A stretch of DNA of 64,000 nucleotides. Origin: Candidatus Hydrogenedentota bacterium. GTDB taxonomy: Bacteria; Hydrogenedentota; Hydrogenedentia; Hydrogenedentales; SLHB01. This document shows, piece by piece, positions 6,956 through 64,000 of the stretch. The stretch is from assembly GCA_963668025.2 (NCBI GenBank), contig CAXXTH010000012.1:1537-65536 (forward strand), read 5' to 3'. Below the pieces are notes generated by a model that was given only the letters and a program-made list of their open reading frames with translations, did not search any database and was not told where the DNA came from. Position numbers and translations under genes: made by a program. How positions within the stretch are numbered: the stretch's first letter is position 1; the number at the start of each line of letters is the position of its first letter.

Positions 6956-7457
6956 ATGATGAGCATCATCGAACCCATCATTACGGAATTCGCCACCGAA
7001 TCGCAGAAAACCCGCAGCCCTGCTCGAGCGTGTGCCCGAGGAGCATTTTGGCTGGCAGCCGCATGAAAAATCCATGACGTTGGGGCGTCTCGCATCCCAT
7101 ATCGCCGAGACCCCCGCTTGGGCGGTTGTGATATTAAATACAGAAGAATTCTCCATGAACATGGAAACATATAAACGTTTCGAGGCGGAGAGCGTTTCCG
7201 AGCTGCTCGATGTGTTCGATAGAAATTGTACGAATGCCGCAGATGCCATGAAAGACCGTTCCGACGCGTACATGCAACAAATCTGGCGCATGAAGATAGG
7301 CGAAAGAACAGCTTTTGAAGCAACGCGAATCGAGGTCATCCGCGCCATGATCCTCAACCACGCCATTCATCACCGAGGCCAGCTTGATGTCTATCTGCGC
7401 CTCAAGGATGTGCCGCTGCCCGCCATCTATGGTCCCAGTGCTGACTCGGGGAGATGA
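6956..7457 (+). pseudogene. DinB-family (DinB_2-like) metal-dependent protein with one frameshift near 7015-7020
   Basis: GGAGG followed by an ATG gives MMSIIEPIITEFATESQKTRS. The frame then changes (an extra C in agccc), and ORF 7032..7457 continues ...LLERVPEEHFGWQPHEKSMTLGRLASHIAE...LNHAIHHRGQLDVYLRL. Confidence 0.65.
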
Positions 7458-7487
7458 AAAGCTCAGAGGCGGATTGAGCGCCGCTGG

Positions 7488-8561
7488 TCATCGCTGCTCT
7501 TTTTTATATTGGCGCTGCCATTTGGCGATTTGCTTCCATTTGCGTTCTTCTTCTATCTGGGCGCGCTGGTCTTGCTTGCGAGCCAGATATTGAAGTTCGC
7601 GCTGTAATTTCTTGTAACTGGCAAAACGCGCTTCATCGAGCGCGCCAATATCGAGAGCCGCCTGGACCGCGCAGCCGGGCTCGTTGGCATGGGTGCAATC
7701 CCGGAAACGGCAGTCTTCCGCCAAGGCCTCGATATCGGCAAACGCATGTTCGAGGCCTTCTTCCGTGCCCCACCAACTGGAGCTCCCGCATGCCGGGCGT
7801 ATCGAGCAGAACGCCTCCGCCGGGCACGGGGATAAGCTCCCGATGCGTGGTGGTATGTCGGCCACGGCTGTCATCGGCGCGCACTTCGCTTACTTGCTGG
7901 CGCGCTTCGCCTAAAAGCGCATTAATCAGGGAAGATTTCCCTACGCCAGAACTGCCGAGAAAGGCTACGGTCTGGCCGGAAACAGCGAACGGGCGCAAAG
8001 ATTCCGCGCCATCTTCTTCCACCGCCGAGACCGCGAACACGGGCACGCCGAACGCTATCGCCTGCACTTCTTCCACGATTTGCGCGATATCGCCGCATAG
8101 GTCCGCTTTATTGAGCACAATGACCGGCGCGGCTCCGCTCTCATAGGCGGCCGCCAGATAGCGCTCGATGCGCCGCACATTGTAATCTCCATCCAGGCCC
8201 GCCACGAGAAACACGGCATCCACGTTGGCCGCCGCCACTTGCGCTTCCGTCACCGTCCCCGGCTGCCTTGCGGATAAATGCGCTCCGCCGTGGCAATAGG
8301 GGCGTGAATGACCGCCTTTTCTTTCACCCGCGCAAGGCTCGAGCGCCACCCAATCTCCCACCGCCGGAAAATCCGCCGGGCTTTGGGCATGATGCCTGAA
8401 TGCGCCCGAGATCTCAGCGGTCCAAGTGGCATTTTCCCCCGAGGACGTAATAGATGCCGCGCGCGGCGCGCGCGATTCGCCCCGGTGTGCGCCCTTCTTG
8501 AGCATATGGATGGAACCGGCTTTTCCCATCCTGCATTCCAGCCTAGATCATTTAGATACAT
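7488..8561 (-). pseudogene. rsgA: Ribosome small-subunit-dependent GTPase A, frame-disrupted
   Basis: ORF 7633..8529 carries the circularly permuted GTPase motifs (VLNKADL, GSSGVGKSSLINAL, DTPGMRE). The C-terminal zinc knuckle CRFRDCTHANEPGCAV is in a different frame (ORF 7488..7874), with the shift near 7768-7778 at a G/C run. The N-terminal MYLNDLGW... is in a third frame (ORF 8250..8621). Confidence 0.75.
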
Positions 8562-16069: not shown

Positions 16070-16119
16070 CGTAGCATGGCCGTCCCGGCCATGCGCATGG
16101 GCGGGACGCCCATGCTACG
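16070..16119. repeat. REP-like double-hairpin palindrome, copy 1
   Basis: CGTAGCATGGCCGTCCCGGCCATGCGCATGGGCGGGACGCCCATGCTACG. It contains two internal hairpins (CATGGCCG-TCC-CGGCCATG and CATGGGCG-GGA-CGCCCATG) inside an outer GTAG/CTAC stem. Related copies lie at 32594-32645 and 60407-60459. Confidence 0.7.
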
Positions 16120-16282
16120 GGATCTCACCAAATAGGTGAAATGGAGCATTCTTTGTATCCGGCGATCGAGGGCGATAAGCTCGCTTTACATATTCATGGT
16201 ATAATCACAATCATTGTTGGGGGGCTGGTCCGTGTCGAGAACCGGCCTCCTGTTGTGTTTATGGATAGGCGTCTAAAACACG

Positions 16283-32498: not shown

Positions 32499-32593
32499 AC
32501 CGCCTTCACGCTGAGGCAGTGACGCAACCAAAGTGTTTCGTTTTTTTGCCGCGAATGAACGCGAATATATCCTCTAACATGTTTTTGCATCTC

Positions 32594-32645
32594 CCGTGGC
32601 GTGGGCGTCCCGGCCATGCATATGGGCAGGACGGCCACGCCACGG
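32594..32645. repeat. REP-like double-hairpin palindrome, copy 2
   Basis: CCGTGGCGTGGGCGTCCCGGCCATGCATATGGGCAGGACGGCCACGCCACGG. It has the same architecture as 16070-16119. Confidence 0.65.
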
Positions 32646-32700
32646 AAGGCATTCTTCAACAAATCATAACGTTTCCACTGGGGCGAGCGGCGCTTCTTTC

Positions 32701-53948: not shown

Positions 53949-54367
53949 TATCTATAGTTAATGGTAGGGCGCTTTTTCTGGATGCGCGCCTGCAATACGC
54001 GCGGTGTGTATGGCAGGGCGGGGAAAGAGAAAGCGCCTTTCCTTTTCTTTGCGGAAACACCTCCAATAATACCGGTTCTGTTTTTCCACCGATTGCGCTG
54101 ATGACACTGATGTCCGGAAAAATAAATAGTATACTACTATTTGTCGAAATCTTGTTTCCTTGCATGTATTTTCTGTGTAAGTCAAATAGAATCTAATTGT
54201 TATAGCATACGTTTTAAATAATGTCTTAGTTGGCTCTTCCTTTGATTGGTGGGGCAAGCCCCACCCTACACTTCAAATTTTAGTGTATTTAGTGTATTTA
54301 GTGGTTAGATCGGGCTCTTTGGTTATGGATTCATCCCTACTCTCCGGCAAAATCGTTGCGGAATGTA

Positions 54368-55061: not shown

Positions 55062-55090
55062 TTGACTAGAACATAATGTCGTGTTATACT
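55062..55090 (+). promoter_or_regulatory. Sigma70-like promoter (TTGACT-N17-TATACT)
   Basis: A near-consensus pair lies just upstream of the GGDEF gene. It implies that the ATG at 55076 is not used and that translation starts at a downstream ATG. Confidence 0.45.
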
Positions 55091-55150
55091 CTAGCCAATG
55101 AAATATTTCTTTATTTTGTTTGTATGCATGGAATGAAGGAAACCGGAAAG

Positions 55151-55825
55151 ATGGATACTACAGATCCCGTCGAGGCCGGGCATGCGCCATTCAGCCAATC
55201 GCTAGATCCCCTGACAGGGCTGCCGGGGCAGCCTGCGTTTACGTCGGTTTTTTCCGAAGCCTTGGCTCACGCGGAACAGGCGGGCGAGCCCGTTTCGCTT
55301 GTGTTGGCGGATATTGATCGGTTCGAAGCCATGAACCGGCAGCTTGGGCGGGATGCAGGCGATGGCGCGCTCAAGAGTGTCGCGCAAACGATGTCCGGTG
55401 TCGTAGCGCAAACGGGCCAGGTGTTTCGATACGGCGGCGATGCGTTCATTGTTCTGATTGAAGGCATGGAAAAAGAAGATGCCTTCCTGCTGGGTGAACG
55501 GGTCCGAAGCGCCATCGAGCAAAGTGATGCAACCATGTCCGCGGAATGTCCTTTGCGCATTACGGCGGGCGTGGCGGCTTACTCCGATGACGGCGGCACG
55601 GTGCAGGAAGTCATCCGCAAGGTCAACGAAGCCTTATACCGAGGCAAAGTACGCGGCGGCAACACGGTCTGCATCGCCCGCGAAGAGAAAATGGTCACCA
55701 AGACCAGCCACTACACCCAGGGCCAATTGCTCGGCCTGACACGCCTCGCCAAGCGCGAGGGCCTCGGCGAAGCGGAATTGCTCCGCGAGGCGCTAGACGA
55801 CCTGCTGAGGAAGTATAACGCGTGA
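55151..55825 (+). CDS. Degenerate GGDEF-domain protein (GGDAF) fused to a C-terminal ribbon-helix-helix-like segment
   Basis: LTGLPGQPAF, LVLADIDRFEAMNRQLGRDAGDGALK, FRYGGDAFIVL. The C-terminal KTSHYTQGQLLGLTRLAKREGLGEAELLREALDDLLRKY looks CopG/Arc-like. The start is uncertain (55124, 55133 or 55151). Confidence 0.8.
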   Translation: MDTTDPVEAGHAPFSQSLDPLTGLPGQPAFTSVFSEALAHAEQAGEPVSLVLADIDRFEAMNRQLGRDAGDGALKSVAQTMSGVVAQTGQVFRYGGDAFIVLIEGMEKEDAFLLGERVRSAIEQSDATMSAECPLRITAGVAAYSDDGGTVQEVIRKVNEALYRGKVRGGNTVCIAREEKMVTKTSHYTQGQLLGLTRLAKREGLGEAELLREALDDLLRKYNA

Positions 55826-56067
55826 GGAGGCGGCTGCCGGGAGTAATACCCCTAAAGCCTCGTGTTATAATCACCTGAGTAAAGAAAGAGGATGCGGGTG
55901 TTGATATCGGCCTCAGTCGTAACAGGGATAAATGGGCCATTTATCGTCTCTCGCATGGATGCAGAAGGGTAAGCTTTTAGCGCCTTTTGGTTTTCGCCCC
56001 TCTTTTTGTTTGCCATCCGGTGGCGGGTCGCAACAATAGTCCGGCAAACTATGGAGGAAATCTCCAA

Positions 56068-56643
56068 ATGCTTGTATTCTACAAACGGAATAAGAGGAAC
56101 ATTTCATTTTTCCTGCTTCTCTGCGTAATGGCAGGCGGATATTATGGATATTTGCAAATTTCGGGGAATTTCCACACAGTTGTGCCTGGTGCATTATACC
56201 GGTCCGCACAGATTACGCCGGGGCAGATCTCCAGATACAAAGAACGTTATGGCATCCGCACCATCATCAATCTTCGAGGAGATAGTGCTGGCAACGATTG
56301 GTACGAAAAAGAAGTGGCGGCAGCTCAGCAACTTGGCATTCAGCATGTTGATTTTGGCATGTCTGCTAATAAGACACTTTCTATCGCCCAGGCAGGCGAG
56401 CTTGTTAAGCTGCTGAAAGCAGTTCCGAAACCGGTGCTGATTCATTGTAAGGCAGGTTCCGATCGGAGCGGGCTAGTGGCCGCGATATACCTTGCCGCCG
56501 TTGATGGCTCTAATGAAGGCCGGGCGGAACGGGAGATATCCATTTGTTACGGCCATATTGGAATTCCTTACATATCCTCGGCATACGCCATGGATGAGAC
56601 GTGGGAGAACCTAGAGCCCTGGCTTGGCTTTGGAGAATCGTAG
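56068..56643 (+). CDS. Membrane-anchored protein-tyrosine/dual-specificity phosphatase family protein
   Basis: N-terminal TM ISFFLLLCVMAGGYYGYL and a CX5R active-site loop HCKAGSDRSG. A GGAGG RBS precedes the start. Confidence 0.8.
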   Translation: MLVFYKRNKRNISFFLLLCVMAGGYYGYLQISGNFHTVVPGALYRSAQITPGQISRYKERYGIRTIINLRGDSAGNDWYEKEVAAAQQLGIQHVDFGMSANKTLSIAQAGELVKLLKAVPKPVLIHCKAGSDRSGLVAAIYLAAVDGSNEGRAEREISICYGHIGIPYISSAYAMDETWENLEPWLGFGES

Positions 56644-56780
56644 CCGGCCCAGCGGAACTGTCCAGCTGCGGGTGTCATGGCTGTCGCGCCTGGTGGAAGA
56701 CATCAGGCGCGAAAAAAGGTATCGAGAGAGGCCACGTTAATACTTTATGTCATACTCGCTTGGCCTAGAGGAGGTAAAAC

Positions 56781-57080
56781 ATGGAGTTGCCGATTCGGAT
56801 TGATAAAAGCCAGATAGCGGTATTTTGCAAAAAGCACCATATAACGAAGCTGGCGCTTTTCGGGTCCGTCTTGACCGAGCATTTCACCGAGGAAAGCGAC
56901 GTGGATGTGCTGGTGGAATTTGAGCCGGAGCATATCCCGGGCCTGATCCGGCTCTGTGGCATGGAGCGCGAGCTTTCCGGCATTCTCGGGAGGAAAGCGG
57001 ACATGCGCACGCCTGGCGATCTAAGCCGGTATTTCCGCGATGAAGTCATCAACTCCGCCGTGGTGCAATATGCTGCTTGA
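56781..57080 (+). CDS. MntA-type nucleotidyltransferase antitoxin (type VII TA), pair 1
   Basis: LALFGSVLTEHFTEESDVDVLVEF (the GS...DxD minimal nucleotidyltransferase motif). Strong RBS GAGGAGG. It overlaps the downstream HepT. Confidence 0.85.
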   Translation: MELPIRIDKSQIAVFCKKHHITKLALFGSVLTEHFTEESDVDVLVEFEPEHIPGLIRLCGMERELSGILGRKADMRTPGDLSRYFRDEVINSAVVQYAA

Positions 57081-57411
57081 CGGTGATCAGGTGAGGCTGA
57101 AACACATACTTGATGCCCTTCAAGAAGCTGTAGATTATGTAATGGATGTTGAGTGGACCGAGTTCGCAGCCAAACGGCCATTACAGCATTCGGTGGTGCG
57201 CTGCATTGAAATTGTGGGTGAGGCATCCAGCCGATTATCGAAGGAACTACGAGAATCAAATCCACAAATTCCATGGGTGGATATGATTGGCATGCGCAAT
57301 CGCATTGTACACGCCTATTATGAAATTGATATTGATATTATATGGAAAACAGCGAAAGAAGATTTACCGAATTTGTTGCCAAAGATAAAGGCTGCCACTC
57401 AAAAGCCGTGA
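57070..57411 (+). CDS. HepT-type HEPN ribonuclease toxin (DUF86), pair 1
   Basis: RNRIVHAYYEIDIDIIW carries the Rx4HxY HEPN motif. It is about 113 aa. Confidence 0.85.
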   Translation: MLLDGDQVRLKHILDALQEAVDYVMDVEWTEFAAKRPLQHSVVRCIEIVGEASSRLSKELRESNPQIPWVDMIGMRNRIVHAYYEIDIDIIWKTAKEDLPNLLPKIKAATQKP

Positions 57412-57501
57412 TCTTCAGAATAGATAATATATGCGTTTTCATTCGTGTAAATTGGTGTCCATTCGTGGTTCAACTGAATGCTCGATAAGTAGGGGCGTTA
57501 C

Positions 57502-58089
57502 ATGGCTTCAACTCCCAAATCTCGATGCGGATGGCCGGGCGATGACCCGTTGATGCGAGCGTATCATGACGCGGAGTGGGGCGCGCCACAGCATGACGAC
57601 CGGGTGTTGTTCGAGTTCGTGACGCTCGAGAGCGCCCAAGCGGGATTGAACTGGAAGACCATCTTGAACAAGCGTGAGGGCTACCGCCAGGCGTTCGCGG
57701 GATTCGACCCGGCGGCTGTGGCGCGGTTCACGGAATGCGACCAGGCACGGCTTCTGGCCGATGCGGGCATCGTCCGAAACCGCCTCAAGATAGCGGCGGC
57801 CATCACCAACGCCCAGGCGTTTCTGGCGATACAGGAGGCCTTCGGCAGTTTCGACGCCTACAGTTGGCGTTTCGTGGAGGGCGCGCCCATTCAGAACCAT
57901 TGGCGCACGCTGGCCGAGATTCCAGCCCGTTCCGCCGAGTCAGACGCCATGAGCAAGGATATGAAGCAGCGCGGCATCAAGTTTTTTGGCACTACCATCT
58001 GTTACGCCCACATGCAGGCGGTGGGCATGATGAATGATCATATAATGGATTGTTTCCGGTGGCGGGAAGTGCAAGCGGTAGGCAAGTGA
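57502..58089 (+). CDS. tag: DNA-3-methyladenine glycosylase I
   Basis: RCGWPGDDPLMRAYHDAEWGAPQHDDRVLFEFVTLESAQAGLNWKTIL...IVRNRLKI... Confidence 0.9.
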   Translation: MASTPKSRCGWPGDDPLMRAYHDAEWGAPQHDDRVLFEFVTLESAQAGLNWKTILNKREGYRQAFAGFDPAAVARFTECDQARLLADAGIVRNRLKIAAAITNAQAFLAIQEAFGSFDAYSWRFVEGAPIQNHWRTLAEIPARSAESDAMSKDMKQRGIKFFGTTICYAHMQAVGMMNDHIMDCFRWREVQAVGK

Positions 58090-58407
58090 ATGGGAGACAA
58101 AGTCATGCATACGCGGGAATCAGCGCTGCGGGTTCTGCGTGAGAGCTTGCCGGAATTGAGGAAAGCTTATGGCGTGCGCCGTTTGGCTTTGTTCGGATCC
58201 GTCGCGCGGGATGCTGCACGAGAGGAAAGCGATGTCGATGTGCTGGCCGAATTTGACCGGCCCATTGGTTTCCTTTTTGTCGATTTTGCGGAGCATCTTG
58301 AACATATACTGGGCGCGAAAGCGGATGTGCTGACGCCCGATGGCGTGGCCGCGATTCACAATCCTGAGATTGCCACACGTATTCTGGAATCAGCCATCGA
58401 TGTCTAA
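58090..58407 (+). CDS. MntA-type nucleotidyltransferase antitoxin, pair 2
   Basis: LALFGSVARDAAREESDVDVLAEF. It starts immediately at the tag stop (TGAATG) and overlaps the downstream HepT (ATGTCTAA). Confidence 0.85.
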   Translation: MGDKVMHTRESALRVLRESLPELRKAYGVRRLALFGSVARDAAREESDVDVLAEFDRPIGFLFVDFAEHLEHILGAKADVLTPDGVAAIHNPEIATRILESAIDV

Positions 58408-58753
58408 ACGTTCGGATAAGGAACTCATTGATGACATGCTTAATGCGTTGAGCCGTATGGAGGCATACTGCGCGGAGATGGATTATGCAAGCTTCTTAGA
58501 GGATAACAAGACGCAAGACGCGGTGATACGAAATGTGGAGATCCTAGGTGAAGCGGCCAAACTGGTTTCCGAGGATTTGCGACAAGCCTACCAGGAAATA
58601 CCATGGCGCAGTATAGCGGGCACACGCGATCGACTTATTCACCATTACTTTGGTGTGAACTGGGAGATCGTATGGAACATAGTCAAGAATGATAGTCCGA
58701 TTTTGATTGACAAACTGAACCAAGTTCGATTTAACCAAAAGAGAAACTGTTGA
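58400..58753 (+). CDS. HepT-type HEPN ribonuclease toxin (DUF86), pair 2
   Basis: TRDRLIHHYFGVNWEIVW carries the Rx4HxY motif. Confidence 0.85.
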   Translation: MSKRSDKELIDDMLNALSRMEAYCAEMDYASFLEDNKTQDAVIRNVEILGEAAKLVSEDLRQAYQEIPWRSIAGTRDRLIHHYFGVNWEIVWNIVKNDSPILIDKLNQVRFNQKRNC

Positions 58754-58786
58754 GTAAATGGTTATTGGATAGGAGTAACACGCAAA

Positions 58787-60196
58787 ATGCCGAAGAACAT
58801 CTATGAAAAAATCTGGGACGCGCATTTGGTGCATGAAGAAGCGGGGCAGTCGCCCATTCTCTACATCGACCGGCAGTATGTCCATGAAGTGACCTCGGCG
58901 CAGGCTTTCGATGGATTGCGCCTGTCGGGGCGCAAAGTCCGGCGGCCCGAATTGACCTTCGCCACCATGGACCACAATATCCCGACGACCGGGCGCGGCA
59001 AGCCCATCGCTGACGCCCTGTCGCGCCAGCAGGTCGAGACGCTCTCGAAGAACTGCGCGGAATTCGGCGTCGCGTGCTTCGGCATGGATCATCCCTTGAA
59101 CGGCATCGTCCACGTCATCGGCCCTGAACTGGGCCTAACCCGCCCCGGCATGACCATCGTCTGCGGCGATTCCCACACGGCCACCCATGGCGCGCTGGGC
59201 GCGCTGGCCTTCGGCATCGGCACGAGCGAAGTCGAGCACGTCCTGGCGACACAGACCCTTTTACAGAAGAAATCGAAGACCATGGAAGTGCGCGTCACGG
59301 GCGCCCTCAAGCCGGGCATCACGGCGAAAGACGTTATCCTGGCCATCATCGGCATCATCGGCACGGACGGCGGTACGGGCTACGTCATCGAGTTCACGGG
59401 CGACGCCATCCGCGGCTTGAGCATGGAAGGCCGCATGACGGTGTCGAACATGACCATCGAGGCGGGGGCGCGCGCGGGGCTGATCTCGCCCGACGACACG
59501 ACCATCGAATACTTGAAAGGCCGCGAGTATCTGCCGAAAGACCAGCCGTGGAACGCCCTCGCGGCAGGATGGAAGAGCTGGGCCTCGGACCCCGGCTGCG
59601 CGTACGACAAGGTGGTCGTGCTCGACGGCGCGTCCATCGAGCCGCAAGTCACGTGGGGCACCTCGCCGGGCATGGTCACGAGCATTACGAGTAAAACGCC
59701 CGTGCTGGCGGACATCGCCGATGCGGATAAGCGCGATTCGGCAGCAAAAGCCCTCGCATACATGGGCTTGGGCGAAGGCGTACCCATGATGGATATCGCC
59801 GTCGACAAGGTGTTCATCGGCTCCTGCACGAATGGACGCATTGAAGACCTGCGCGAAGCCGCGAAATTCGCCAAGGGCCATAAGGTCCACGCGAATATCC
59901 GCCAAGCGCTGATCGTCCCCGGCTCGAACAAGGTCAAACAGCAGGCGGAGGCCGAAGGCTTGGACAAGATTTTCATCGAAGCGGGATTCGAGTGGCGGGA
60001 AGCGGGCTGTTCCATGTGCCTGGCCATGAACGACGACCGGCTCGATCCCGGCGACCGCTGCGCCGCCACGTCGAACCGGAACTTTGAAGGCCGGCAAGGC
60101 AAAGGCGGCCGCACGCACCTCGTCAGCCCCGCCATGGCGGCGGCGGCGGCGGTGGTCGGCCACTTCGTGGATATCCGTAATTGGAAATGTGATTAA
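58787..60196 (+). CDS. leuC: 3-isopropylmalate dehydratase large subunit
   Basis: [15 protein letters not shown]..., [53 protein letters not shown]. Confidence 0.95.
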
Positions 60197-60217
60197 CTGT
60201 ATAAAAAACGCTCTCAT

Positions 60218-60283
60218 CGTCATTCCCGCGCAGGCGGGAATCCAGGGCTACTCGCATGGGGCCATGCTTTCGCGGGAATGACG
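60218..60283. repeat. Palindromic element with ATTCCC-N8-GGGAAT core (copy 1)
   Basis: The outer 13-bp inverted repeat is CGTCATTCCCGCG (60218-60230) / CGCGGGAATGACG (60271-60283). The inner core is ATTCCCGCGCAGGCGGGAAT (60222-60241). A second copy lies at 60525-60592. Confidence 0.75.
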
Positions 60284-60406
60284 GTGGAGAGCAATAGACG
60301 CAGAGGCGCGGAGTACGCGGAGAGGACATAAAGTACAGAACAATAGCCACAAAATCCACAAGAGGCATCAAATGCTTCTTGAACACCAGATAGGAAGGAT
60401 GAGAAC

Positions 60407-60459
60407 CCGTAGCATGGGCGTCCCGCCCATACGCATGGCCGGGACGGCCATGGTGGCGG
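60407..60459. repeat. REP-like double-hairpin palindrome, copy 3
   Basis: CCGTAGCATGGGCGTCCCGCCCATACGCATGGCCGGGACGGCCATGGTGGCGG. Its 3' end merges into the duplicated leuC 3' end. Confidence 0.65.
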
Positions 60460-60489
60460 CGGTTGGACACTTCGTGAATATCCAGGACT
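60447..60489 (+). pseudogene. Duplicated 3' end of leuC (orphan fragment)
   Basis: GCCATGGTGGCGGCGGTTGGACACTTCGTGAATATCCAGGACTGA encodes AMVAAVGHFVNIQD*. This parallels the true end [21 protein letters not shown] at 60131-60196. The similarity continues through the downstream palindromic element to about 60610. Confidence 0.65.
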
Positions 60490-60524
60490 GAAAATGCAAT
60501 TTACGGCATAAAAAACGGCCTCAA

Positions 60525-60592
60525 CCGTCATTCCCGCGCAGGCGGGAATCCAGGGCGATTTACACGAAGCCATGTTTTCATGGGAATGACGG
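60525..60592. repeat. Palindromic element with ATTCCC-N8-GGGAAT core (copy 2)
   Basis: CCGTCATTCCC (60525-60535) pairs with GGGAATGACGG (60582-60592). The core ATTCCCGCGCAGGCGGGAAT lies at 60530-60549. Confidence 0.75.
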
Positions 60593-60692
60593 TGGAGAGT
60601 ATCATACGCAAGGCGAGGAAAAGGCAACAGATGAAGTCAGAAGTAGGGACGGTATTGTGAGACACATTGGATAATGCATGGAGTAGTTTGAA

Positions 60693-61511
60693 ATGCCAGC
60701 GATAACGGATCATCCTTGTTTTCCGCAGCCTGAGGATGCTGACACCAAAATCTGGCGTTACATGGATTTACCAAAATTGCTTTGGATGCTGGAAGAGAAT
60801 GCTCTCTACTTTTGCAGAGTGGATTTACTAGAAGATACGTTTGAGGGTACAAGGACTCCGTCTACTGAGCCCTTGATTAACGAAGATAGGTGTCCTGATC
60901 TCCTGAAGCAATTTTTTCGAGAAGAAAGAAAAGCTAGACGTTCTTTGGTTTTTGTGAACTGTTGGTACTTTGGTGATCACGAATCTGTTGCTATGTGGAA
61001 GATATACGGGAAAGAGAATAAGTCAATCGCTGTGCAGTCAACTTATCGTTCCTTATTTGAACAGTTAAATCTAGTTCGATTTCTAGAAAACGAAGAATTA
61101 GTTCACGACTGTTTCTTAGGGCTTGTCTCATATATTGACTATACTAAGGAGAGTCTGGGTCGCCCTCAGAATTTGCTCTCTCCATTCATGCATAAGAGAG
61201 AGTCATTTGCCTTTGAAAAGGAAGTGCGTGCATTGGTCGATTCAGAATTCATCAAGAATCTTGGTGATTATTGTGCGAAGAAATCAGATAGGCAAAAAGA
61301 AGCGAGGCGTATTCGTGATCTGTATGCCAGGCATGTGAAAGAGTGCTCAGGAATCACTGTTCCCGTTGATCTATCTGCGCTTATCGAAAGCATTTACGTT
61401 GCACCCAAAGCAGAGCTGTGGTTTGTGGAACTCGTAGAGAAAGTAATACGGCGATATGGACTCAATGTGCCGGTGAAGCATTCGTCTTTGGATGCCGATC
61501 CACTATACTAA
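60693..61511 (+). CDS. DUF2971-family protein
   Basis: KIWRYMDLPKLLWMLEENALYFCRVDLLEDTFEG, VNCWYFGDHESVAMWKIYG, VSYIDY and FMHKRESFAFEKEVRAL match the DUF2971 pattern as I recall it. The gene is AT-rich. Confidence 0.7.
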   Translation: MPAITDHPCFPQPEDADTKIWRYMDLPKLLWMLEENALYFCRVDLLEDTFEGTRTPSTEPLINEDRCPDLLKQFFREERKARRSLVFVNCWYFGDHESVAMWKIYGKENKSIAVQSTYRSLFEQLNLVRFLENEELVHDCFLGLVSYIDYTKESLGRPQNLLSPFMHKRESFAFEKEVRALVDSEFIKNLGDYCAKKSDRQKEARRIRDLYARHVKECSGITVPVDLSALIESIYVAPKAELWFVELVEKVIRRYGLNVPVKHSSLDADPLY

Positions 61512-61540
61512 GATGTCTCTGATTAGGGATGAAAACGTCA

Positions 61541-61617
61541 CATAGTGGCTGTTGTGCTCGTTGTGGTTGAATATGGTCAAATATAAATAAACCACAACGG
61601 ACACGACGAACACGAGG
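61541..61617. repeat. Word-triplet hairpin repeat
   Basis: CATAGTGGCTGTTGTGCTCGTTGTGGTTG, an AT-rich loop, then AACCACAACGGACACGACGAACACGAGG. The basal stem is 10 bp with an imperfect extension. A related copy lies at 62715-62811. Confidence 0.7.
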
Positions 61618-61660
61618 ATCACCTAGGTAAGGTGATTCTTACGCTAGAAGGGTACGGCCC

Positions 61661-61975
61661 ATGACGCGCGAAGAGTTATTGCTTGCCGTGAAGGAGGCCG
61701 TGCAGGCGGTGTCGCCTGGCGCGTCGGTGATCCTGTTCGGCTCGCGCGCACGGGGCGACGCCCAGCCGGATTCGGATTGGGATTTTCTGGTGCTGACCGA
61801 TGAACCACTAGGCTGGAGGAAAGAAAGAGAACTCCTGCGCGGTATGTGGCGTGTGGAATGGCAATGCGGTGAAGTGCTTAATCCTATTGTCCATTCACGT
61901 GCGGAATGGCAGTCGCCCATACGTGAAGGCTCTCCATTCCTGCAGGCCGTGAACCGGGAAGGGATTCCCGTATGA
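61661..61975 (+). CDS. Minimal nucleotidyltransferase (MNT) domain protein, partner of the downstream HEPN protein
   Basis: VILFGSRARGDAQPDSDWDFLVLTDE. It overlaps the HEPN gene by 4 nt. Confidence 0.85.
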   Translation: MTREELLLAVKEAVQAVSPGASVILFGSRARGDAQPDSDWDFLVLTDEPLGWRKERELLRGMWRVEWQCGEVLNPIVHSRAEWQSPIREGSPFLQAVNREGIPV

Positions 61976-62370
61976 ACGATTCTACACAGGAGATTGTCCT
62001 GTTTCGCCTTCGAGCGGCGCGGGAAACGCTGGTAGAAGCTCGCGCCATGTTGGACGGAGGGCATCCCCGCGGATGCATTAACCGGCTCTATTATGCATGC
62101 TTTTACGCCGTGAGCGCATTGTTATTGGCAAAAGGGCTTTCCTCCTCCAAGCATACGGGGGTTCGCGCCTTTTTTAATAAAGAGTTCATCCATACCGGTG
62201 TGTTTTCTGCTTCTATTGGAGACACATACAACACGTTGTTTGTAAAACGTATGAGTAGCGATTATGAAGATTTTTTCACGCCTAATAGCCAGGAAGTATC
62301 TGAGTTGTTCTCAGAAGCCGGGCAGCTTGTAGATACGATAGACGGATATTTGCAGCGAAACACGGAGTAA
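61972..62370 (+). CDS. HEPN-domain protein (PF05168-like)
   Basis: ARAMLDGGHPRGCINRLYYACFYAVSALLLAKGL...KRMSSDYEDF matches the classic HEPN/MNT pair layout. Confidence 0.8.
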   Translation: MNDSTQEIVLFRLRAARETLVEARAMLDGGHPRGCINRLYYACFYAVSALLLAKGLSSSKHTGVRAFFNKEFIHTGVFSASIGDTYNTLFVKRMSSDYEDFFTPNSQEVSELFSEAGQLVDTIDGYLQRNTE

Positions 62371-62375
62371 TTCCA

Positions 62376-62690
62376 ATGACGCGCGAGGAGTTGTTACAAG
62401 CCGTGAAGGAAGCCGTGCAGGCGGCGGCGCCGGACGCGTCGGTGATCCTATTCGGTTCGCGCGCACGGGGCGACGCCCAGCCGGACTCGGATTGGGATTT
62501 TCTGGTATTGACCGATGAGCCGCTGAGCGAAGCATCGCAGGAAAGTGTGAACCGGCGTATATGGGAATTGGGTTGGGACGAAGGATTGACACTATCCACC
62601 CTGTTCTATACCCGTTCTCAATGGCAGGAACCTCGGCGGCGGGCCGCAGGATTCCACCGCGCCGTGGAACGCGAGGGAATCTTGTTATGA
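62376..62690 (+). CDS. Second MNT-domain nucleotidyltransferase (orphan paralog)
   Basis: MTREELLQAVKEAVQAAAPDASVILFGSRARGDAQPDSDWDFLVLTDEPL. The 5' half is nearly identical at the DNA level to 61661..61975, and the 3' half is diverged. Confidence 0.85.
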   Translation: MTREELLQAVKEAVQAAAPDASVILFGSRARGDAQPDSDWDFLVLTDEPLSEASQESVNRRIWELGWDEGLTLSTLFYTRSQWQEPRRRAAGFHRAVEREGILL

Positions 62691-62714
62691 TGGAAGGTTC
62701 AGTTGATAATCGGA

Positions 62715-62811
62715 CATAGTGGTTATTGTGCTCGTCGTGGTTGAGTCTCAACAAACCACAACGGACACAATGTTGGCGTTTTTTCGTGTATTTGGTGTAT
62801 TTCGTGGTTCG
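62715..62811. repeat. Word-triplet hairpin repeat (three arms)
   Basis: CATAGTGGTTATTGTGCTCGTCGTGGTTGAG / AAACCACAACGGACACAATG / TTTTCGTGTATTTGGTGTATTTCGTGGTTCG. Confidence 0.65.
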
Positions 62812-62849
62812 TATTTTTGAGGACAAACGCCAAACATAGGAGTGAGCCC

Positions 62850-63125
62850 ATGGGATGCTGTTTTGGATTGTTGCTGGCGGCGGGGATTCCGCGCATCGCG
62901 TTGATTCTGGTGTGGCTGTCGGGAAAGAGCGCGTCTCTCTTTGATACGCGCCTGTGGCCGTTGCTCGGGTTCTTCTTCCTGCCCTACACCACGTGCGGCT
63001 ATTGTATCGCGGAATATTACTTTAAAGGCCCCTCGGCGGGCTGGGGCCTTGCGGTGGTGATCATCGGCGTGCTACTCGATTTGGGCAGCCACGGCGGCGG
63101 CGCACGGCAAATGCAGCGGCGATGA
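62850..63125 (+). CDS. Small hypothetical membrane protein
   Basis: AGGAG RBS. The product has three predicted hydrophobic segments (MGCCFGLLLAAGIPRIALILVWL..., LWPLLGFFFLPY..., WGLAVVIIGVLLDL). Confidence 0.5.
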   Translation: MGCCFGLLLAAGIPRIALILVWLSGKSASLFDTRLWPLLGFFFLPYTTCGYCIAEYYFKGPSAGWGLAVVIIGVLLDLGSHGGGARQMQRR

Positions 63126-63130
63126 TGAAT

Positions 63131-63365
63131 GTATTTTTAACACAAAGGCACAAAGACACAAGGAGGTCTCTCACCGCTTGTAGTTTGCCCATAATTCTTT
63201 GTGCCTTAGTGTCTTTGTGTTGAGTTTTTAATGAGTACAAAATCGCGAAAGCGTTGTCGAATAGATCGTGATGTTCTAACAAAGAGAAGAAAACACATGG
63301 AATCCTTCAAGACGTTGACTAGCGTTGTGGAGCCGCTGGACCGGATGGATGTGGATACGGACCAG
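63131..63365 (+). repeat. Duplicated leuD leader plus 5' coding end (copy 1 of a ~235-bp direct repeat; copy 2 at 63767-64000)
   Basis: The same hairpin repeat is present in both copies (AACACAAAGGCACAAAGACACAAGGAGG...CTTTGTGCCTTAGTGTCTTTGTGTT), along with the same RBS region and first 23 codons. The offset is 636 bp. Confidence 0.8.
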
Positions 63366-63380
63366 TCTAGAACGGAATGA
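63297..63380 (+). pseudogene. Truncated duplicate of the leuD 5' end
   Basis: MESFKTLTSVVEPLDRMDVDTDQ|SRTE* compares with the true start MEPFKTLTGVVAPLDRMNVDTDQ at 63933. By my alignment there are 5 mismatches in the last 84 aligned nt. Confidence 0.75.
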
Positions 63381-63396
63381 TTGGAGGTGAAGAGAT

Positions 63397-63705
63397 ATGC
63401 GCGAAGTACGCTATGTTGCTAAGAATAATCGCATTCTTGTCATTTCCTTGGCATTTACATTCTGCTGGATGATTTATGCCATGTCCACCTTTTATACAGC
63501 TAAGATGGTTTGGATTTTACCCGGATTAGGCTTTATCCTAAGCGGTTTTGTTTTGTGCGGAGTAAGTGTATTGGCGGACTTGAGGCTGTTTTTTGAAAGA
63601 GAAGTAAAACTAAAAACCAGGCTGCTAGTCGGAAGCGTATGCCTTTTGGTGGTTTTATATTCTTGTTATGCTTTTCTTTCTGTGCTTAGGCAGCCAACGT
63701 TTTGA
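63397..63705 (+). CDS. Small hypothetical membrane protein (102 aa)
   Basis: GGAGG RBS. There are three hydrophobic segments. The gene is AT-richer than its flanks and sits between the two leuD-5' repeat copies. Confidence 0.5.
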   Translation: MREVRYVAKNNRILVISLAFTFCWMIYAMSTFYTAKMVWILPGLGFILSGFVLCGVSVLADLRLFFEREVKLKTRLLVGSVCLLVVLYSCYAFLSVLRQPTF

Positions 63706-63932
63706 TAAGGATTATGCGGAAATATACAACCGACAACGCCGGGAAGATAGGTTTACTTAGACGTTTATTTTTTAACACAAAGGCACAAAGACACAAGGAG
63801 GTCTCTCGCCGCTTGTGGTTTGGCCTTAATTCTTTGTGTCTTAGTATCTTTGTGTTGGAATTTTTGTAAGTAAAAATCGCAGAAACGTTATCGAATAGAT
63901 CGTAATGGCCCATAACAAGGAGAAGAAAACAC

Positions 63933-64000
63933 ATGGAACCCTTCAAGACGTTGACTGGCGTTGTGGCGCCGCTGGACCGGATGAATGTGGATACGGACCA
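63933..64000 (+). CDS. leuD: 3-isopropylmalate dehydratase small subunit (5' end; continues beyond the window)
   Basis: MEPFKTLTGVVAPLDRMNVDTDQ is the canonical LeuD N-terminus (…LD..NVDTDQIIP). Confidence 0.8.
   Translation, partial: MEPFKTLTGVVAPLDRMNVDTD

Follow-up and report, generated by a model that had tools for sequence, protein, structure and literature searches.

Nested spacer alleles and orphan gene ends between leuC and leuD in a Candidatus Hydrogenedentota bacterium

Introduction

The genes for LeuC and LeuD, two subunits of a single enzyme, are normally adjacent, and few bacterial gene pairs stay together as stably. Of 135 Pelagibacter genomes, for example, at least 120 retain LeuB-LeuD-LeuC adjacency (bioRxiv 10.64898/2026.04.03.716430). 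Here we describe a leuC-leuD spacer of 3736 nt (60196 to 63933) on contig CAXXTH010000012.1 of a Candidatus Hydrogenedentota bacterium (assembly GCA_963668025.2), analysed as a stretch of 64,000 nt that is hereafter called the window; all positions are window positions and the window ends at 64000. Within this spacer the 3'-end of leuC and the 5'-end of leuD are each present a second time, as decaying orphans.

Displacement has been put forward to explain orphan immunity genes with effector 3'-stubs in the T6SS (type VI secretion system) arrays of Vibrio cholerae and orphan Rhs 3'-regions (PMC5361080), and homology-facilitated illegitimate recombination (HFIR) has been demonstrated experimentally (PMC3240628). 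In Rhs, contact-dependent inhibition (CDI) and T6SS orphan arrays (PMC5361080), an incoming allele finds its anchor in the conserved portion of a gene, the opposite end being joined illegitimately and no recombinase being required; the old or hitch-hiking end lies beside the functional one, co-oriented and decaying, and successive rounds stack up. The leuC-leuD spacer can be read in the same terms. It differs from these arrays in that the genes concerned encode housekeeping subunits of one enzyme rather than polymorphic toxins, in that a 3'-end orphan and a 5'-end orphan face each other across one spacer, so that two alleles are nested, and in that the orphans have no obvious selective value.

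In core defence hotspots such as those of Pseudomonas aeruginosa, cargo may often be devoid of mobility genes and may be exchanged via flanking homology. Such hotspots occupy fixed positions between conserved genes and carry varying accessory and defence cargo (PMC10250203), as does the spacer described here, in which the candidates are genes matching the PADLOC models PDC-S31 and PDC-S09 and a minimal nucleotidyltransferase (MNT)-HEPN module. Unlike those hotspots, this one lies inside an operon, between normally adjacent subunit genes, is very small and has visible recombination scars.

Results and Discussion

Organization of the spacer

The two genes that bound the spacer are co-oriented. 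LeuC scores 774.6 bits against the cut-off of 560 of the NCBIfam leuC equivalog TIGR00170; LeuD is visible only to codon 23, where the window ends, and was judged on these 23 N-terminal residues. The preliminary description of this DNA placed the end of leuC at 60196 and the start of leuD at 63933, and all of the elements that it listed between them are present. Pairwise alignment of the two sets of gene ends recovered both repeats. The leuC tail and the hairpin downstream of it are doubled (60145-60312 versus 60452-60619; 79% identity over 169 nt, E 1.7e-34), and so are the hairpin, leader and first 23 codons of leuD (63134-63364 versus 63769-64000; 88% over 233 nt, E 1e-80). The second ends of both genes are real and decaying, but the preliminary description overstated the case in calling the leuD copy nearly identical, as identity reaches 94% only in the final 88 nt. 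The orphan leuC tail (60452-60503) and the orphan leuD head (63298-63366) are both on the plus strand, 256 nt past the leuC stop codon and 567 nt ahead of the leuD start codon, respectively. Six families of direct repeats (at least 40 nt, copies within 5 kb) were found in the 64-kb window, all six inside 60131-64000. The gene ends, alleles and junction are as follows, with REP (repetitive extragenic palindrome), H and K denoting hairpin families and memb1 and memb2 two small membrane-protein genes.

58787-60196, plus strand: leuC, 3-isopropylmalate dehydratase large subunit, intact, 469 aa; Pfam Aconitase, 2.8e-177
60452-63364, plus strand: inner allele, comprising the orphan leuC tail, REP-A2, the DUF2971 gene, H1, MNT-HEPN-MNT, H2, memb1, K1, a leader and the orphan leuD head
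60197-60451 and 63365-63932: outer allele, comprising REP-A1, filler and REP-B in the first part and an old leader remnant, memb2, K2 and a leader in the second
60452-60503, plus strand: orphan leuC 3'-tail, reading ...VAAVGHFVNIQD, a stop codon and KCNL, the codon for a conserved Trp having changed from TGG to TGA
63298-63381, plus strand: orphan leuD head, 23 codons (MESFKTLTSVVEPLDRMDVDTDQ) followed by SRTE and a stop codon
63365-63396, plus strand: leuD-side junction, at which leuD homology stops at GACCAG and the next 27 nt match sequence upstream of memb2 in a sister lineage
63933-64000, plus strand: 5'-end of leuD, first 23 codons (MEPFKTLTGVVAPLDRMNVDTDQ), matching the LeuD N-termini of relatives

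The block from 60452 to 63364 opens on a decayed leuC tail and closes on a decayed leuD head; bounded in this way, it is a complete spacer allele nested in a second one. The spacer is thus two spacer alleles, one inside the other.

As the source is a metagenome-assembled contig and the structure is literally that of two spacer alleles, an assembler might have stitched the alleles of two co-existing strains into a nested arrangement. A Logan contig from an independent assembly (run ERR12015700) has 2637 nt that are 100% identical to 60527-63163. This contig ends exactly in the 30-39-nt exact repeats of two hairpin pairs, REP-A and K, which is the behaviour expected of real repeats in a k-mer graph; because it stops there, it does not confirm the outer joins. 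An assembly chimera is nevertheless extremely unlikely, because at the joins (60452 and 63365) the partners have just 6-9 nt in common, well under the k-mer length of any assembler, and because the orphan ends are degenerate (a stop codon at a conserved Trp, a weak Shine-Dalgarno sequence, substitutions in a conserved motif) and so are not the working ends of another strain. In addition, the copies differ by 6-27%, making the repeats resolvable, and memb2 flanked by K hairpins is seen independently in the sister lineage.

The leuC side

The orphan leuC tail starts exactly at the end of a truncated REP-B palindrome. The join, at 60447-60452, is the 6-nt sequence GCCATG, which is common to REP-B and to leuC at 60131-60136. 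With REP-B cut short at a 6-nt microhomology, the junction is explained by illegitimate recombination rather than by REP transposition. The functional and orphan tails, which are 79% identical, have in common a KC(D/N) ending found in none of 13 relatives, whose tails end W[QEDA][FY][KN]. Given this shared derived ending, both tails come from the same or very close lineages, and any donor was therefore close.

The last eight sense codons of the functional gene (60172-60196; GAT ATC CGT AAT TGG AAA TGT GAT) are AT-ending and rare or absent elsewhere in leuC, with CGT, for example, used for none of 23 Arg. Their GC content at third codon positions (GC3) is 2/8 versus 0.83 in the gene body (P=5e-4), which hints, in a small sample, that the present leuC tail may not have co-evolved with the gene body.

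The leuD side and a sister lineage

The 23 codons of the orphan leuD head differ from those of the real head at four positions. All four differences are non-synonymous and two are in the conserved VAPLD..NVDTDQ motif. The Shine-Dalgarno sequence of the orphan leader is weakened, AAAGAG versus AAGGAG.

A sister lineage is represented by three contigs, L088, L170 and L171, from three ENA samples. L088 is colinear with 63388-63930 of the window, containing memb2, the spacer that follows it, a K hairpin and a leader. Nucleotide identities, and for memb2 the synonymous divergence (dS), are as follows.

memb2 coding sequence, window versus sister: 83%, dS 0.54
spacer after memb2, window versus sister: 63%
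functional K-leader of the window versus K-leader of the sister: 84.4%
orphan K-leader of the window versus functional K-leader of the sister: 94.4%, no gaps
orphan versus functional K-leader of the window: 87.2%

The orphan leader is therefore closer to the functional leader of the other lineage than the window's own functional leader is (94.4% versus 84.4%; Fisher P=0.004). At 94% identity across a split with a dS of 0.54, it must be a recent arrival, or the product of recent conversion, from a sister-like functional allele. By this comparison, the orphan leuD leader is far younger than the separation of the lineages, and its origin is allelic.

L170 and L171 reach 118 nt upstream of memb2 and contain the right half of a K hairpin, then ~55 nt with a partial leader, then memb2. 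No orphan leuD head is present upstream of memb2 in either contig. The partial leader of the sister has 19-21 matches in 27 positions to the leaders, a level reached by 5 of 500 shuffles, and 63370-63396 of the window is homologous to the 3'-part of the sister's stretch ahead of memb2 (score 38, reached by 0 of 500 shuffles). With this remnant shared, both lineages have an old order in common: K, partial leader, memb2, K, leader, leuD. The window lineage would later have gained a further piece, containing K, a leader and leuD codons 1-23, that was joined into the old remnant, giving two nested rounds of leuD-head formation. The preliminary description had proposed that successive events left orphan ends behind; in the case of leuD, the data point to more than a single round, with the older round drawn from short alignments.

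Two other histories of the leuD side were considered and set aside. The sister arrangement could be that of the window minus a 125-nt deletion between GAAT repeats, which the sequence allows, but the orphan would then predate the split, contrary to 94% identity at a dS of 0.54. A swap of two leader types was also evaluated, and the partial leader of the sister fits both types about equally (19 and 21 of 27).

A proposed origin by recombination between leu-locus alleles

We consider it about an even chance (probability roughly 0.5) that this arrangement results from repeated one-ended homologous and illegitimate recombination between diverged alleles of the leu locus, for which no integrase is needed. 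The nesting, the junction at a microhomology, the relationships between alleles and the lack of recombinase genes in the region searched are observations; the one-ended mechanism and the number of events are deduced from them. As part of it, the spacer would be an accessory-gene islet without mobile-element genes, in which related lineages hold different co-oriented cargo at two junctions. Incoming DNA from a related lineage would be anchored by homologous recombination in the conserved body of a leu gene or in the hairpin-leader, with the body of leuC or leuD, or the 39-nt exact stretch of a K arm, as possible anchors. Its other end would be joined illegitimately, at a microhomology of a few bases just inside the resident gene end, as in HFIR. 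The imported piece would supply one complete gene end and the other copy would stay beside it as a co-oriented, decaying orphan. One such event per side, together with an older one at leuD, would give at least two, and probably three, events. Presumably only products with an intact, co-transcribable leuC and leuD survive, and the uniform orientation of the cargo on the leu strand would then follow. Of the marks of a displacement array, an adjacent, co-oriented orphan is found here, different alleles are found for the leuD head and a microhomology junction is found on the leuC side.

Several points weigh against this proposal. No donor genome was identified, and routes of DNA uptake are not known for the phylum. 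HFIR is, as quoted in PMC5361080, orders of magnitude rarer than ordinary recombination, and two or three events are needed at one locus. The clues as to which allele was resident conflict, the native-like REP-B pointing to the outer left part and the odd codons of the functional leuC tail to the opposite. The sister lineage consists of only three contigs of 538-565 nt at low coverage, which do not cover the leuC side, and the older leader remnant depends on the 27-nt alignments (5/500 and 0/500 shuffles). With the window stopping at leuD codon 23, the presumed leuD anchor and any recombinase downstream lie beyond view. Finally, a similar pattern of identities could be produced by duplication in situ if one copy later underwent gene conversion or allelic replacement.

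Duplication in situ was also weighed as the primary cause, with tandem units of ~307 and ~635 nt generated by microhomology or repeat slippage among the hairpins, followed by decay, insertions and deletions, cargo insertion and occasional conversion. All local direct repeats of the window cluster in the interval, where hairpins and REPs are dense, the GCCATG microhomology fits a duplication join equally well, both leuC tails have the same lineage-specific ending and a mosaic of the two MNT genes (see below) shows that local recombination or conversion happens. Duplication alone, however, cannot put ~400 nt of unrelated DNA, with memb2, between the leuD copies and 139 nt between the leuC copies, and second copies of this intervening filler are absent. 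It would also need extra conversion or replacement events to make the orphan leuD leader 94% identical to that of another lineage at a dS of 0.54 and 87% identical to its own. We regard it as possible but rather unlikely.

The spacer in related loci

The spacer was compared with ~100 related loci from a Hydrogenedentota-like clade, in which LeuC is at most 82% identical to that of the window, so that the comparison is at family level. The nearest other LeuC is 82% identical, the named matches are Candidatus Hydrogenedentes or Hydrogenedentota, and synteny outside leuC and leuD is already lost among the relatives compared. Clade members (LeuC identity of at least 72%) have leuC-leuD gaps of 6 to 1625 nt, which makes the 3736 nt of the window the largest; in more distant bacteria the gap is mostly 3-50 nt. 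Seven loci (L002, L004, L006, L008, L084, L086, L087) are empty sites with gaps of 6-95 nt. Across the relatives, at least nine different cargos occupy the gap, every one on the leu strand.

L081 and L082: Na/Ca exchanger
L091: MscL
L083: AsnC-like protein
L003 and L129: DUF1232 protein
L096 and L097: Y1 transposase
L098: open reading frame (ORF) of 349 aa
L010: membrane ORF of 128 aa
L110: MNT and HEPN
L007: lone REP-A pair

The idea that the leuC-leuD spacer is a hotspot, put forward in the preliminary description, is thus borne out by empty sites and alternative cargos.

In L110 (LeuC 76% identical), the MNT-HEPN pair lies at 7295-7998 between leuC and memb1, and its HEPN protein is 42% identical to that of the window. 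This module is a long-standing occupant of the gap, or else it was acquired repeatedly. The L110 pair is tightly packed and has no hairpins.

A self-search of 90 related loci with both genes found no second copy of the leuC end or of the leuD start (0/90). Insertion at this site does not, therefore, regularly duplicate gene ends, and the orphan ends appear to be occasional accidents, specific to this genome among the loci compared. The leuD leader, sought as an exact pattern in metagenome contigs, had no matches.

The preliminary description also held that integrating elements bring or create a replacement gene end. Direct repeats of a gene end that bracket inserted DNA, with the functional gene intact, are indeed the classical signature of integrase-mediated islands that regenerate the 3'-end of their target (tRNA, tmRNA or protein gene), and the spacer has this appearance. 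In such a reading, decayed site-specific integrative elements would have entered at the leuC 3'-end and the leuD 5'-end and carried replacement ends, their integrase now lost or beyond the window; the interval does hold foreign AT-rich genes, and DNA past 64000 lies outside view. Unlike those islands, however, the spacer has no discrete element and no exact core is evident, the repeats being 73-94% identical with no shared att-like core longer than 39 nt, and what lies between the repeats as would-be 'elements' measures only 139 and ~400 nt. The leuC-side junction is a truncated REP with a 6-nt microhomology, and the orphan on the leuD side is allelic to the functional copy of another lineage, which fits allelic recombination. 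No integrase is encoded by the interval ORFs on either strand or by the larger ORFs at 44-64 kb, no recombinase was found in the interval or the 20 kb upstream, none of the 90 related loci has duplicated ends and the cargo has no phage or plasmid similarity. An origin from such elements is very unlikely, and the claim is not sustained by the comparison.

memb1 and memb2

The two small membrane-protein genes of the spacer have different histories.

62850-63125, plus strand: memb1, conserved membrane protein, 91 aa; GC3 0.75, native-like; no Pfam or NCBIfam family
63397-63705, plus strand: memb2, AT-rich membrane ORFan, 102 aa; no Pfam or NCBIfam family

Homologues of memb1 are located between leuC and leuD in L003, L005, L009, L081/82, L090, L091, L093-99, L103, L104, L106, L110 and L129, and usually lie directly ahead of leuD (L003, L005, L009, L081/82 and ~14 further metagenome loci). 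They share the motif FPR..L..MWL…LWP.LGFFF.PYTTCAY…GW…LD.G..GG. Members of the family are ~90-100 aa, with an N-terminal M.CC followed by FPR, LWP.LGFFF.PYTTCAY and LD.G..GG, and distant members occur at other loci. From these positions, leuC-memb1-leuD is the usual, ancestral order of the clade, with memb1 a resident rather than cargo, and the memb1 family may be an unrecognized member of the leu operon in this clade. Cargo enters at either junction, leuC-memb1 or memb1-leuD. The preliminary description had nothing in the interval as leucine-related, which is wrong for the ORF at 62850-63125, and listed both membrane ORFs among the accreted elements, where memb1 is ancestral and memb2, an ORFan specific to its lineage, does not travel as a cassette.

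Homologues of memb2 form a single cluster among 5.8 billion proteins (P0122/P0243, 81% identical), on the contigs of the sister lineage, and an exhaustive HMMER search of 1.84 billion representative proteins found no relatives beyond this cluster. With a dN/dS of 0.22 at a dS of 0.54 between window and sister, memb2 is a real gene under purifying selection. It has a weak PADLOC match to '2TM effector' (E 0.004).

In Gallionellaceae and other Betaproteobacteria (L038, L041, L047, L069), the leuC-leuD gap contains a secreted, lipoprotein or entericidin-like ORF of 39-101 aa. Small envelope proteins at the leuC-leuD junction recur across phyla.

Hairpins and palindromes

A strong hairpin of 60-95 nt is present 8-65 nt past the end of every gene block. 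The hairpins and the associated non-coding elements of the spacer are listed below.

60145-60316, plus strand: copy 1 of the duplicated leuC-side unit, with the functional leuC tail (to 60196) and the REP-A1 hairpin (60210-60292), which holds ATTCCCGCGCAGGCGGGAAT at 60222-60241; fold -53.5 kcal/mol, z -7.4
60317-60399, no strand assigned: filler of REP-like fragments with no coding potential; its motif GCGCGGAGTACGCGGAGAGG is unique in the window
60400-60452, no strand assigned: REP-B palindrome, truncated, without the final 5 nt (ctacg) of the canonical copy; fold -35.1 kcal/mol
60518-60600, plus strand: REP-A2 hairpin, degenerate, with the second ATTCCCGCGCAGGCGGGAAT at 60530-60549; fold -35.6 kcal/mol, z -3.3
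61545-61613, plus strand: H1 hairpin, directly 3' of the DUF2971 stop codon; fold -31.9 kcal/mol, z -4.2
62719-62777, plus strand: H2 hairpin, directly 3' of the MNT2 stop codon, followed by GTGTATTT-type 8-nt repeats (62781-62809)
63134-63297, plus strand: K1 hairpin (63137-63224) and leader copy 1, orphan; fold -36.7 kcal/mol, z -4.2
63769-63932, plus strand: K2 hairpin (63770-63860) and leader copy 2, functional, with an AAGGAG Shine-Dalgarno sequence; fold -39.4 kcal/mol, z -6.6

The ATTCCC-N8-GGGAAT palindrome of REP-A occurs exactly twice in the window (60222 and 60530) against an expectation of 0.01, and REP-A of this type is also present in L007, L047, L065 and L135. REP-B has other copies in the window, 96% identical at ~16070-16127 (aligned at 16075-16127) and 82-86% identical at ~32593-32645. 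The REP-B family consists of GC-rich palindromes of ~50 nt, cgtagcatggccgtcccggccatgcgcatgggcgggacgcccatgctacg, dispersed in intergenic regions (16070-16121, 32591-32648, 60400-60452), and in the relative L001 a palindrome related to REP-B, GGGCGTCCCGCCC, comes after leuC. H1 and H2 are 77-81% identical. The longest exact stretches in the repeats, 39 nt in the left arm of K and ~31 nt in REP-A, are inside hairpins and off the repeat boundaries. The arms of K (63139-63221 and 63774-63856) are built of 8-nt periodic units, CACAAAGG/CACAAAGA/CACAAGGA, as are those of H (61551-61607), CCACAACG/GACACGAC/GAACACGA, and half-arrays of the GTGTATTT type are located at 62781-62809 and 54278-54306. No known element family matched this 8-nt-unit architecture. 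In an Rfam scan of 55-64 kb, the hairpins gave only sub-threshold microRNA look-alikes, and a consensus scan for promoters and terminators gave counts not above those in shuffles.

REP-A and REP-B resemble the typical extragenic palindromes of REPs with REP-associated tyrosine transposases (REPtrons). In L096 (2160-3110; L097 is alike), an IS200-like Y1 transposase lies in the same gap, between memb1 and leuD, with no gene-end duplication, and is flanked in REPtron-like fashion by inverted arrays of GTCCCGTAGGGAC and CCCAGCGATTTATCGCTGGG palindromes. Unlike what is seen here, REP proliferation does not duplicate flanking gene ends; in addition, no Y1 was found in the window and REP-B is truncated at a recombination junction.

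Hairpins after every gene block raise the question of cassettes, each consisting of one or more genes and a 3' imperfect palindrome, exchanged at a resident hairpin by a hairpin-specific recombinase acting in trans (integron-like or from clusters of attC sites lacking integron integrases (CALINs), an IS200/IS605-type palindrome-associated element, or one with res/Xer-like sites). As in integron arrays, CALINs and the Photorhabdus toxin-antitoxin cassettes, where a palindrome flanks each cassette and a single palindrome marks the empty site (PMC13617665), the small genes here are co-oriented with a palindrome at their 3'-side, and toxin-antitoxin modules are typical cassette cargo. H1 and H2 flank MNT-HEPN-MNT, and K hairpins flank memb2 in both window and sister, as direct repeats; the Y1 transposase of a relative would be a further pointer. 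Unlike integron arrays, however, the spacer has three unrelated hairpin families, and on inspection of sequence and folds the R''(RYYYAAC) and R'(GTTRRRY) boxes and unpaired spacers of attC are missing in REP-A and H, while K has AAC…GTT at the base of a stem that is fully paired and made of 8-nt repeats. The window regions examined contain no gene for IntI, Y1 or another recombinase. Homology reaches well past the hairpins to take in the leader and gene ends, a feature that site-specific exchange leaves unexplained, and memb2, having no relatives elsewhere, does not circulate as a cassette. No hairpins with the K or H motifs were seen in the related loci; in viral contigs the K-hairpin pattern had no matches and the H-arm pattern had 13, all in unrelated sequences without a hairpin partner. 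Cassette exchange of this kind is improbable. A still more doubtful variant is an unrecognized hairpin-directed system, integron-like without IntI or an attC consensus, that acts in trans and uses the spacer as a landing pad, the orphans being side products of recombination running from a hairpin into adjacent homology.

Cargo genes and the search for recombinases

The remaining cargo consists of four genes.

60693-61511, plus strand: DUF2971-like gene, 272 aa, AT-rich (GC 0.42, GC3 0.41); candidate single-gene phage-defence protein
61661-61975, plus strand: MNT1, minimal nucleotidyltransferase, 104 aa; Pfam NTP_transf_2, 3.4e-11; PADLOC PDC-S09
61972-62370, plus strand: HEPN-domain protein, 132 aa, overlapping the MNT1 stop codon; Pfam HEPN, 1.2e-15
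62376-62690, plus strand: MNT2, second nucleotidyltransferase, 104 aa; Pfam NTP_transf_2, 3.3e-13; 62% aa identity to MNT1

The DUF2971-like protein scores 18 bits with Pfam DUF2971, below the gathering score of 22, and matches PADLOC PDC-S31 with an E of 1.6e-22. Its homologues outside its own genome are 30-39% identical (best 39%), are named DUF2971 and come from scattered taxa. MNT1 and MNT2 are 88% identical in their first 152 nt (61658-61809 versus 62373-62524) and ~50% identical beyond; the 88% zone extends from 3 nt ahead of the ATG to about codon 50 and ends at a sharp mosaic boundary, which suggests gene conversion or a recombinant antitoxin gene. By its domain matches, the module is a generic MNT-HEPN pair with an extra MNT. 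Identity with the type VII HepT/MntA system was considered and rejected, as the HEPN domain is PF05168, not HepT (PF01934), and the MntA model gives 34.7-35.5 bits against a cut-off of 60.

The region ahead of leuC is expanded too, with a tyrosine/dual-specificity phosphatase, a Tag glycosylase (57502-58089) and two MNT-HepT pairs (56781-57411 and 58090-58753), both of the HepT type, in the stretch (55826-58786) that separates a GGDEF gene (55076-55825) from leuC. These upstream blocks have no flanking hairpins and no local repeats. In the relatives L083 and L087, the GGDEF gene is directly ahead of leuC.

No recombinase or transposase domain was detected in the ORFs of the interval, on either strand, or in the larger ORFs tested at 44-64 kb, in line with the preliminary description, which had reported no integrase or transposase in the interval. 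Pfam found no match in the long antisense ORFs of the interval, including those over the filler (60317-60399), tblastn with the Y1 transposase of L096 found nothing in the window and blastn of the spacer against plasmids and phages gave no match.

Significance

Orphan formation of the displacement or HFIR type is a known kind of event; what is new here is a housekeeping operon junction that doubles as a tiny toxin-antitoxin and defence islet. The locus would be a clean natural example with datable scars, its mechanism being deduced from the sequence of one genome and three short sister contigs. The leuC-leuD junction is here a small hotspot for accessory genes and candidate defence genes, and the orphan gene ends would be datable fossils of the growth of an islet without mobile-element machinery, through sloppy recombination between related genomes. 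Such recombination would also explain stray pseudo-fragments of housekeeping genes in metagenome-assembled genomes, and the conserved small membrane protein memb1 is flagged as a possible unrecognized member of the leu operon in this clade. If general, this would give toxin-antitoxin and candidate defence genes a way to settle in essential operons, from which they are not easily lost.

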